Shown here: positions 25,683 through 29,025 of the stretch, piece by piece
Numbering within the stretch: the stretch's first letter is position 1
Layout of the letters: each line of letters starts with the position of its first letter
Assembly: GCA_002168225.1 (NCBI GenBank)
Contig: NHBH01000001.1
Coordinates: 1,126,370 to 1,190,369 of the forward strand
DNA: 64,000 bases
Origin: Micavibrio sp. TMED2
GTDB lineage: Bacteria; Pseudomonadota; Alphaproteobacteria; TMED2
Reading direction: 5' to 3'
Translations under genes and position numbers: made by a program
Notes under the pieces: model-generated
What the model saw: only the letters and a program-made list of their open reading frames with translations
What the model was told of the DNA's origin: nothing
Databases searched by the model: none

Positions 25683-26198
25683 TCAGCGGTTCTTGCGGAA
25701 ATTGTCGAGCGAGACAACCTCGCCGGTCTTCTCTTCACCCTCGACCTTGTCGCCATCATCGCCGTCGGTGTCGTCACCGTCGATTTCGCTGATGCTGCCG
25801 GCTTCCGGTGTTTCTCCATCATCATCCTCGTCATCATCCTGATCCAGCCCCTGGAACTGCAGGGCGAAATTCACGGATGGATCGGCAAAGACGGTGATCG
25901 AGGCAAACGGGATAACCAGCCGCTCGGGCACATTGTTGAAAGTCAGGGTGACGGTGAAGTACTCATCGGTGATTTCCAGACCATAGAACTGGTACTGGAG
26001 CACGATGGTCATTTCGGCGGGGTAGCGTTTGCGCAGGTATTCCGGCACTTCAACGCCGCTGTCGGCGGTGCGGAAGGTGATATAGAAGTGTTGCTCACCG
26101 TTGAGGCCCTGCTCGGCCACGGTTTGCAGAACCTTGCTGACAACGCCGCGCAGGGCGTCCTCAACCAGTACGTCATAGCGCATGTCGGTATCCGACAT
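25683..26198 (-). CDS. sspB: ClpXP adaptor SspB (alphaproteobacterial type)
   Basis: YDVLVEDALRGVV...HFYITF...MTIVLQYQF core, acidic linker, C-terminal VVSLDNFRKNR resembling the ClpX-binding tail of alpha-type SspB. Confidence 0.55.
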   Translation of the reverse strand: MSDTDMRYDVLVEDALRGVVSKVLQTVAEQGLNGEQHFYITFRTADSGVEVPEYLRKRYPAEMTIVLQYQFYGLEITDEYFTVTLTFNNVPERLVIPFASITVFADPSVNFALQFQGLDQDDDEDDDGETPEAGSISEIDGDDTDGDDGDKVEGEEKTGEVVSLDNFRKNR

Positions 26199-26355: not shown

Positions 26356-26422
26356 GTCATTCCAGCGAAAGCTGGAATCTCGATGACAGCAGCGCTTGGA
26401 TTCCAGCTTTCGCTGGAATGAC
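26356..26422. repeat. nested palindrome: two 23-nt inverted arms (GTCATTCCAGCGAAAGCTGGAAT / ATTCCAGCTTTCGCTGGAATGAC), each arm itself a hairpin
   Basis: Read directly from sequence; 21-nt spacer; lies between ssrA 3' region and sspB start. Confidence 0.7.
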
Positions 26423-26454: not shown

Positions 26455-26875
26455 GTGAAAGAGAAGTGGAGGCCTTCTGTTGCTAGGCGGCCTCCGGTCC
26501 CCACCCTAGACGGCAAAGCCTAGGGAATTAAATTTCAGTATTACGCGCTGCCTTAGGCTGCGAGTGCTACTGGAGCTGCGTTATTATCGTTTGCAACTAT
26601 AATATAGCCCGATAACGGCGGTACCATACCGGGAACAAACGTTATCTTTACTGCGCGTGTCGATCCTGTTTCGCCCCCATCCCGGACCGCCCGACGATGA
26701 CGGGTTTTGCAACCCATCGATCCGGCGGATTTCCCGGATCACTCAAGGTCTGTATCAAGCCAAGCCCCAAGTGATCCCGGAAATGGTGGAGGCGCCGGGT
26801 ACTGCCCCCGGGTCCACAACGCCTATTCCATAACGCGTTTAGCGCCATAGCCGGTAAACCGGCATGGATAGATAT
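26455..26875 (-). ncRNA. ssrA: tmRNA (ssrA), circularly permuted two-piece type: acceptor piece ending CCA at 26784, coding piece starting GGGGGCGAAACAGGAUCGACACGCG at 26678
   Basis: Minus-strand tag ORF at 26594..26553: GCA AAC GAT AAT AAC GCA GCT CCA GTA GCA CTC GCA GCC TAA, giving ANDNNAAPVALAA-stop. 5' GGGGGCG pairs with 3' CGCCUCC-A-CCA. Permuted gene order (CCA piece upstream of GGGG piece) and pseudoknot-like helices downstream. Outer boundaries approximate. Confidence 0.75.
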
Positions 26876-27127
26876 AGGTCATTCGGCCCGGTTGTTAAAG
26901 GGCAGGGACAATTTCTCGGAATCGGACTTGGAAAATGACATTTATACACAAATGAATCACAACCATGGCGATTCGAATTTTGTTTTAAAAACAAGGGGTT
27001 TTGATTCTTATCAAGAGGGCGTGAATGAAATGAATATCTTAGCTGTTGACGGTTGAAAACAGCGGTTTTGTGAACGTACGCGCATCTCTAAGTTGCTCCT
27101 CTCTGCACAAAATTGAGGATATAGACC

Positions 27128-28135
27128 GTGAACCACGAAGTTTCGCTTGAAATGCAAAAAGATTCAGACCGTTCAAATTCTGAAGTCGGTAAAAAGCGAG
27201 ACCGGATCAGCCCGGAGCAGCGCGCGGAAATCGACGAACAGAAGGCCCAGCGCTACGACACCCGCCGCGCCACCGTCCCGGCGCTTGAGGAAATCCTCTA
27301 TGAGCCGATCCCGCTGCTCGATCACGGCTTTGTCCGGGTTATCGACTATATGGGCGATGACAGCGCGATCGTACAGGCCGCGCGCGTTTCCTACGGCAAG
27401 GGCACCAAGAAGGTCTCCACCGATGCCGGTCTGATCAAGTACCTGCTGCGTCACTGGCACTCGACCCCGTTCGAGATGTGCGAGATCAAGTTCCACATCA
27501 AGCTGCCGATCTTCATCGCGCGCCAGTGGATCCGCCACCGCACCGCCAATGTGAACGAGTATTCCGCCCGCTACTCCGTCCTCGACCGTGAGTTCTATAT
27601 CCCGGCCCCGGACCAGCTCGCCGCCCAGTCACTGACCAACCGTCAGGGCCGCGATGACGAAGCCGTGCTGCAGGGTGAACAGGCCCAGCGCGTGCTCGAT
27701 ATCCTGCGTGATGACGCCTACCGCACCTATGCCCATTATGAGGAGCTGCTGAACGAGGATTCGGAAGGCAATGTGATCGACGAGAGCCGCACCGGTCTCG
27801 CCCGTGAACTGGCGCGCATGAACTTGACGCTGAATACCTATACCCAGTGGTACTGGAAAACCGACCTGCACAACCTGATGCACTTCCTGCGTCTGCGGGC
27901 CGACAGCCACGCCCAGTACGAAATCCGCGTCTATGCCGAGGCGATGACCGATGTGCTGCAGAAATGGGTGCCGCTCACCCATGCCGCCTATGAGGAATAC
28001 CGCGAAGGCGCGGTCAACCTCTCCAAAACCGGCCTGTCCGTGGTCAAACGCCTGATCGCCGGCGAAACCGTCACCCAGGAAACCAGCGGCCTCTCCCCAC
28101 GCGAATGGCGCGAACTGATGGAGCAGGTGGGGTGA
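27128..28135 (+). CDS. thyX: FAD-dependent thymidylate synthase
   Basis: ThyX motif [15 protein letters not shown]; GTG start (ATG alternative at 27146). Confidence 0.9.
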
Positions 28136-29025
28136 AAATAGGCTCGCAGAGTCGCGTAGTAGAAAAGATAATTGAGCCTTTTGCTGCGTTTGTGCAGCAA
28201 AAGAACCGTGAGGTGCCTAATCCTCCAGAAATATTGTGGCACTACACTACATACGATGCATTTATCTCTATTATTAAGGATCAAAGTTTAAGGTTATCAG
28301 AGTTAGGCTACCAGAATGATTCTGGGGAGTACTGGTTCTTTAATGAAATTGTGCAAGGTTCCTTACGGAGTATGCAAGAAAATAACGACGAAGTAATTAA
28401 ATCTGCTAATTATTTAAGGCAATTTTTCTATCAGGCGGGTTTTCGAGGATTTTCAAATGTTTTCTCTTTTAGTTTGACCGAAAAGGCCGATAGCCTGAGT
28501 CAATGGCGAGCATATGCTAATCATGGAGAGGGAGTAGCGTTAGGGTTCTCTGTGGGAGATGTTCCCGATGGTGTTTATTTGGGTCGTTGTTATTATTCAG
28601 AAGTTGGTGACAAAGAGTTTGATGATGTTTTTAGGAGCGTTGTCATTAATCTATCTAATAGTTTTAAGCATAATGATGGCAATCATAATTTAAGTATGGC
28701 GGGTCTGGTCGCCAGCGCATTAATTAAAATTATTTCTGAGGCTTCACCATACGTTAAACATAAGGGTTTCGCAGAGGAGTGTGAGTGGAGAGTTACATCT
28801 TATGGCGGTGAAGATAAGGCTGAGTACGATTTTTTTGCTAAAAATTATGGAATGGTAATGGCTAAAAAAATAAAATTTTCTGCTGGATTGTCTTTGAAGA
28901 AGGTTATGATAGGCCCATCTCCTTTTATGCTTAGAAATAAATTTACTGTTAGTGCTTTCTTGAAACAAAAAAACTTGAATGTAGAGGTTTTATCTTCAGA
29001 AATATCATATAGAAAGCAAGCATAA
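28105..29025 (+). CDS. DUF2971-like protein encoded in an AT-rich insertion
   Basis: [24 protein letters not shown]...NDSGEYWFF resembles the DUF2971 N-terminal HYT...NDPxE signature. The coding region is strongly AT-rich relative to flanks. ORF opens at ATG 28105 inside thyX; alternative GTG at 28132 overlaps the thyX stop. Confidence 0.5.

Follow-up and report, generated by a model that had tools for sequence, protein, structure and literature searches.

A 64-kb stretch of DNA, analyzed as a whole and referred to here as the window, carries on its minus strand a locus that a preliminary description, made from the letters alone, had read as a circularly permuted, two-piece tmRNA gene (ssrA) of alphaproteobacterial type. 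The same description had called the T-loop of this gene, GGCAGUA, unusual beside the canonical UUCGAnU. The locus thus raises the question of whether it holds an ordinary ssrA gene or one whose T-loop points to an anomaly, an error or decay.

ARAGORN was run on the whole 64-kb window and returned one gene, a tmRNA of the permuted type (tmRNA*) at 26462..26876 on the minus strand with the tag peptide ANDNNAAPVALAA. Among the Rfam covariance models, RF01849 (alpha_tmRNA) matched at 26903..26465 on the minus strand with 279 bits (E 3.4e-80) over model positions 1-355 of 355; the match is untruncated, and the gathering score of the model is 50 bits. The model of permuted tmRNAs in general, RF04321 (tmRNA_permuted), matched the same locus at 143.5 bits. 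In the RF01849 structure line the acceptor stem, the T-arm and the long-range P2 helices are paired, with two non-standard pairs. The preliminary description had proposed a check by ARAGORN and a covariance model, and the permuted call and the strong RF01849 match bear out its reading of a permuted two-piece alphaproteobacterial ssrA. As ARAGORN and the RF01849 and RF04321 matches agree independently, the core reading as a tmRNA is taken to be correct, and we are nearly certain that the locus is the ssrA of a marine alphaproteobacterium encoding a standard two-piece tmRNA. This kind of gene is already known: the family was described in 2000, and the present member is intact and ordinary. Direct reading of the minus strand gave the order acceptor (3') piece, spacer and coding (5') piece. 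The CCCGGGGGCAGUACCCGGCGCCUCCACCA stretch of the acceptor piece ends at 26784 and the coding piece starts with GGGGGCGAAACAGGAUCGAC at 26678; both of these positions, together with those of the resume codon (26594) and the stop codon (26555..26553), had been given correctly before. The parts of the gene are as follows.

26872..26900, minus strand: probable promoter, CTTTAA (26900..26895), a 17-nt spacer and CTATAT (26877..26872), inferred from conservation
26784..26866, minus strand: acceptor piece, with an encoded CCA end at 26786..26784 and an approximate 5' end, from the RF01849 alignment and the ARAGORN start at 26876
26795..26811, minus strand: T-arm, with the 5-bp stem CCGGG/CCCGG and the 7-nt loop GGCAGUA (26806..26800), from the RF01849 structure line
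26787..26794, minus strand: acceptor 3' strand CGCCUCC (26794..26788) and discriminator A (26787), which pairs with 26678..26672
26679..26783, minus strand: spacer of 105 nt separating the CCA from the mature 5' end, presumed excised, with two hairpins
26465..26678, minus strand: coding piece, from its GGGGGCG start (26678..26672) to the terminal hairpin GGAGGCC-N14-GGCCUCC (26495..26468), from RF01849 positions 148-355 and the ARAGORN end at 26462
26553..26594, minus strand: tag frame, with the resume codon GCA at 26594..26592, the peptide ANDNNAAPVALAA and TAA at 26555..26553, from ARAGORN and translation

In the acceptor piece, a hairpin, GCCGG-UUUA-CCGGC (26863..26850), accompanies the P2 3' strands, the acceptor 3' strand and the T-arm. 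The acceptor stem is formed by GGGGGCG and CGCCUCC and is followed by the discriminator A and CCA; as had been proposed, it comprises seven pairs with a single G·U, which lies at position 3. This G3·U70 pair is the alanine identity pair. The tag ANDNNAAPVALAA is a lineage variant, and the tags of all 25 listed relatives have ANDN at the start and AA at the end. Upstream of 26594, the pairings CCCGG/UCGGG and UAUGGUA/UAUUAUA were picked out by eye as candidates for PK1, the pseudoknot expected just before the resume codon; Rfam models encode no pseudoknots.

The proposed promoter falls in RF01849 positions 1-33, and its CTT and TATAT are invariant in an alignment of seven sequences. Its layout, CTTTAA-N17-CTATAT, resembles the rhizobial sigma-70 consensus, CTTGAC-N17-CTATAT. 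A scan with E. coli-type promoter and terminator models found no ssrA promoter and no terminator at the ssrA 3' end. On the basis of conservation and of the likeness to this consensus, CTTTAA-N17-CTATAT is probably the promoter of the gene. A 66-amino-acid open reading frame at 26648..26848 on the minus strand was also considered as a real protein; it was rejected, lying wholly within the 279-bit RNA-gene match and crossing the unconserved spacer.

The T-loop of the window departs from UUCGAnU at four of seven positions, and the general model RF04321 carries a canonical T-loop, GGGUUCGAUUCCC, at the same place. Such a divergence is what a decaying or non-functional copy of ssrA, or a sequencing or assembly error, might produce. 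However, the RF01849 consensus reads GGCgGUA at the T-loop, within CCCGGGGGCgGUACCCGG, the match to this model is full-length at 279 bits, and the tag frame is intact. To survey the T-loop across the class, species-representative genomes were scanned with the motif of the coding-piece 5' end, GGGGGCGAAANAGGATCGAC, and the T-arm was left unconstrained; because the selecting motif sits outside the T-arm, the survey is not circular. The scan yielded at least 120 alphaproteobacterial loci (L013-L132), and the T-arm sample comprised 114 genes, namely 107 from the motif scan, six SspB-anchored relatives and the gene of the window. Among the matches listed, the T-loop was GGCGGUA in 84 of the 114 genes, GGCAGUA, as in the window, in 24, GGCAGUG in 4 and GGCAGCA in 2, so that every loop read GGCRGUR or GGCAGCA; the canonical UUCGAAU was found in none of these 114 alphaproteobacterial tmRNAs. 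For four genes beyond the 114, no T-arm was found by the extraction script. Within the SspB-anchored alignment of seven sequences, the T-arm is invariant save for A or G at loop position 4. Elsewhere in the 64-kb window, a scan for GGTTCGAATCC with up to one mismatch allowed detected no canonical T-arm motif, and ARAGORN detected no tRNA gene.

The same gene was, in addition, recovered in independent assemblies from different samples (L001 and L002). In L002 (1839-2253), which is of the same species but from another sample, the tag is ANDNNAAAVALAA instead of ANDNNAAPVALAA through one C-to-G change; alignment showed no other difference from the gene of the window, in the spacer or elsewhere. 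Because separate assemblies give the same gene, one tag codon apart, sequencing error is excluded, and we regard the whole alternative of error or decay as having practically no chance of being right. Published work agrees with the survey: the Caulobacter tmRNA has G at the equivalent of E. coli U342, and G replaces both uridines of the T-loop in the mitochondrial tmRNA of Reclinomonas (PMC1168896). The RF01849 consensus, the 114 genes and this earlier work together overturn the suggestion that the T-loop is unusual. GGCAGUA is a normal alphaproteobacterial T-loop variant and a trait of the family, not an anomaly or a sign of error or decay. At positions 54 and 55, where canonical T-loops carry modified uridines, the loop has G in both cases. 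Since both uridines are replaced, m5U and pseudouridine, both of which the T-loop of E. coli tmRNA carries (PMC3968760), would be unable to form in it.

The same sample bears on the acceptor end. Among the matches listed, the acceptor 3' strand CGCCUCC was present in 114/114 genes and CCA was encoded in 96 of them. The acceptor ends of the other 18 alphaproteobacterial ssrA genes among the matches listed are ACCC, ACCT or ACCG. These 18 genes are normal tmRNAs by ARAGORN; their final A is not encoded and must be added post-transcriptionally.

In the window, ssrA is flanked by two protein genes, with sspB directly downstream on the same strand.

25683..26198, minus strand: sspB, whose product is the ClpXP adaptor for ssrA-tagged proteins (PF04386, E 4.1e-44)
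27128..28135, plus strand: thyX (TIGR02170, E 1.9e-62)

The Pfam match of SspB covers residues 11-163 and profile positions 2-156 of 156. A search of the SspB protein against NCBIfam gave no match, and in the public record of the marine MAG GCA_002697805.1 the protein is labelled hypothetical. The order thyX-ssrA-sspB is kept in close relatives, whose SspB proteins are 63-74% identical. Of the motif-selected alphaproteobacterial loci, 94 have enough downstream sequence to be judged, and among the matches listed 75 of these (~80%) carry a same-strand sspB that follows ssrA at a distance of at most 1.5 kb; thyX lies upstream in only 4 of 83 motif-selected loci. From the 75/94 adjacency it follows that the tag-writing RNA and the tag-reading protein are usually neighbors in Alphaproteobacteria; the sspB of Caulobacter, too, is presumably near ssrA. 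By analogy with the Caulobacter SspB-alpha, for which binding of the ANDN part and delivery to ClpXP come from the work of Lessner et al. (2007), as cited in PMC3985003, the SspB of the window would bind the ANDN part of the tag and deliver substrates to ClpXP.

Two further observations concern the surroundings of the gene. The gap between ssrA and sspB contains a perfect 24-bp inverted repeat, GTCATTCCAGCGAAAGCTGGAATC, at 26356..26422, with 19 nt between its arms, each of which is itself a small palindrome. The repeat is present only in assemblies of the same species (L001-L006), and at the equivalent place L010 has a different REP-like palindrome, of the GGGAGAGGGTTAGGGTGAGGG type. The 24-bp repeat may serve as a terminator or represent a small repeat element. 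On the other side of ssrA, a DUF2971 gene at 28105..29025 on the plus strand (PF11185, E 5.7e-9) overlaps the end of thyX with its start; its GC content is 0.37-0.38 against about 0.6 around it, and it looks horizontally acquired. Past it, the open reading frames at 29185..30045 (plus strand) and 30053..30715 (minus strand) gave no Pfam match. Integration of an island at ssrA was considered and rejected: no integrase, ssrA-end direct repeat or tRNA-like fragment was seen next to ssrA, and the low-GC gene is separated from it by thyX.

The sole mildly unusual feature of the locus is the spacer, whose expansion is limited to a small marine subclade. The minimum free energy of the segment is -56.1 kcal/mol (z = -5.71), whereas all of 200 shuffled sequences folded less stably; relative to RF01849 it represents an insertion of about 78 nt. 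A perfect 14-bp hairpin had been described in this excised segment. The hairpin is indeed there, but it is not perfect: its arms, UUUCCGGGAUCACU and AGUGAUCCGGGAAA, form 13 of 14 pairs around a central G·G mismatch at position 6. They make up the base of a longer stem and are 93% complementary over 15 nt, and the terminal A of the CCA can join the pairing. Across the 114 genes, among the matches listed, the median spacer is 34.5 nt long, with an interquartile range of 29-43 and a minimum of 3, and the 105 nt of the window is the maximum, about three times the median. The shortest spacers, of 3-6 nt, were found in L034, L035 and L011.

Long spacers were found in the nearest relatives of the window, whose SspB proteins are at least 69% identical: 98 nt in L008, 104 nt in L009, 95 nt in L010 and 92 nt in L134. 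In the next relatives, with SspB 63-65% identical, the spacers are 6, 19 and 33 nt (L011, L135 and L136, respectively). The contigs L007, L135 and L136 end inside or next to ssrA; the latter two gave spacer lengths and L007 gave none. An independent spacer of 95 nt is present in an unrelated Aestuariivirga genome (L050). A metagenome scan with the tag-coding motif of the clade found no members of the subclade beyond the GOS contig L008. Past sspB, the next gene is pyruvate kinase in L011, L135 and L136 and a glycerate-kinase-like gene (DUF4147/MOFRL) in the subclade of the window, and this break in synteny coincides with the boundary between long and short spacers.

The excess length and the confinement of long spacers to one small subclade might suggest that the segment is a REP- or MITE-like palindromic mobile or repeat element, without a role of its own and tolerated because it is excised. 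The poor conservation of the spacer sequence among subclade members is in keeping with such an origin, as are the species-specific 24-bp palindrome in the nearby ssrA-sspB gap and the different REP-like palindrome that L010 has in its own. However, apart from its own partner, the hairpin arm has no further copy in the 64-kb window, and all five spacers of the subclade (92-105 nt) form two hairpins despite their divergence in sequence. The consensus fold computed by RNAalifold for these five has an energy of -16.6 kcal/mol with compensatory changes in 7 of 17 pairs, although the first hairpin of the window aligned poorly; we consider this structural conservation suggestive only. Moreover, alphaproteobacterial spacers are commonly hairpins anyway, with a median z of -2.05 against shuffled sequences and 52% of the values below -2, among the matches listed. 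Because spacers across the class tend to fold, the hairpin of the window could be an elaborated form of the usual spacer stem. A mobile element is on balance an unlikely source, which we would give about one chance in a handful.

The stability of the fold and the two-hairpin layout in five diverged relatives also invite the proposal that the excised spacer persists as a stable, functional small RNA, acting as a sponge or regulator, or that it is a structured signal setting the rate of tmRNA maturation. Some tRNA spacer fragments are sponges or regulators. Against this, the spacer sequence is not conserved beyond the subclade, spacers of 3-10 nt suffice in other Alphaproteobacteria, and the covariation is weak at n = 5, and we judge the proposal highly improbable. 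Scarcely better are the prospects of a broader version, in which the 92-105-nt spacer is a functional small RNA or a maturation checkpoint and, relatedly, ssrA and sspB form one co-regulated transcription unit. A function of its own for the spacer is possible but unsupported. Our reading is that the spacer is discarded processing waste that was enlarged in one lineage, for which an origin by palindromic insertion is reasonable.

A pathway of maturation and action can be proposed for the gene as a whole by inference from the family, chiefly from Caulobacter. Transcription would start a few bases past CTATAT (26877..26872) and would give a single minus-strand precursor in which the acceptor piece comes first, then the 105-nt spacer and then the coding piece. 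The tRNA-like halves would then pair through GGGGGCG and CGCCUCC and through the P2 helices. RNase P would cut 5' of G26678, and endo- and exonucleases would trim the other piece until it ends with its encoded CCA (26784); the spacer would be discarded. An endonucleolytic cut seems necessary because the CCA is followed without a gap by a stable hairpin, which would block 3' exonucleolytic trimming. For the two-piece permuted tmRNA of Alphaproteobacteria, reviews name RNase P and tRNase Z as the probable processing enzymes (PMC3985003, PMC3968760). The resulting two-chain RNA would be charged with alanine by AlaRS through G3·U70 and the discriminator A. Together with SmpB, the charged tmRNA would enter stalled ribosomes and add A-ANDNNAAPVALAA, and the tagged protein would be degraded by SspB and ClpXP.

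The prototype of alphaproteobacterial two-piece tmRNAs is the ssrA of Caulobacter crescentus (Keiler, Shapiro & Williams, 2000, cited in both PMC3985003 and PMC3968760). The gene of the window shares with this alpha_tmRNA type the permuted order, the 7-bp acceptor stem with G3·U70, the discriminator A, the encoded CCA, a GGCRGUA T-loop, the GCA resume codon, a tag of the form ANDN...AA and the terminal hairpin of the coding piece. It differs only in its spacer, whose 105 nt form two hairpins and exceed the median of 34.5 nt, its tag being a variant of the lineage. Two-piece lineages of cyanobacteria and betaproteobacteria have also been described (Gaudin, 2002; Sharkady & Williams, 2004; both as cited in PMC3968760). 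The permuted tmRNAs covered by RF04321 have circular permutation and a two-chain mature RNA in common with the window; however, their consensus T-loop is canonical, and the window scores far higher on RF01849. E. coli SsrA likewise has a tRNA-Ala-like domain, a resume codon and an LAA-ending tag recognized by ClpXP and SspB, but it is an unpermuted, one-piece RNA with four pseudoknots and the T-loop UUCGAAU. The jakobid mitochondrial tmRNA of Reclinomonas americana resembles the gene of the window in being two-piece and permuted, in its alphaproteobacterial descent and in the replacement of UU by GG in the T-loop (PMC1168896, PMC3590771). Jakobid mitochondrial tmRNAs are without the mRNA-like tag domain, whereas the gene of the window has a complete tag frame.

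Beyond correct annotation the importance of the locus is small, as standard tools (ARAGORN and Rfam) detect the gene with very high scores. Two curiosities remain, namely the oversized spacer with its structure and the pairing of ssrA with sspB. As by-products of the survey, the variability of the excised spacer was quantified, ranging from 3 to 105 nt and usually a hairpin among the matches listed, and sspB was found to follow ssrA in ~80% of the sampled alphaproteobacterial genomes, again among the matches listed. The useful outcome is a negative one: the T-loop that looks non-canonical is a fixed trait of the family.
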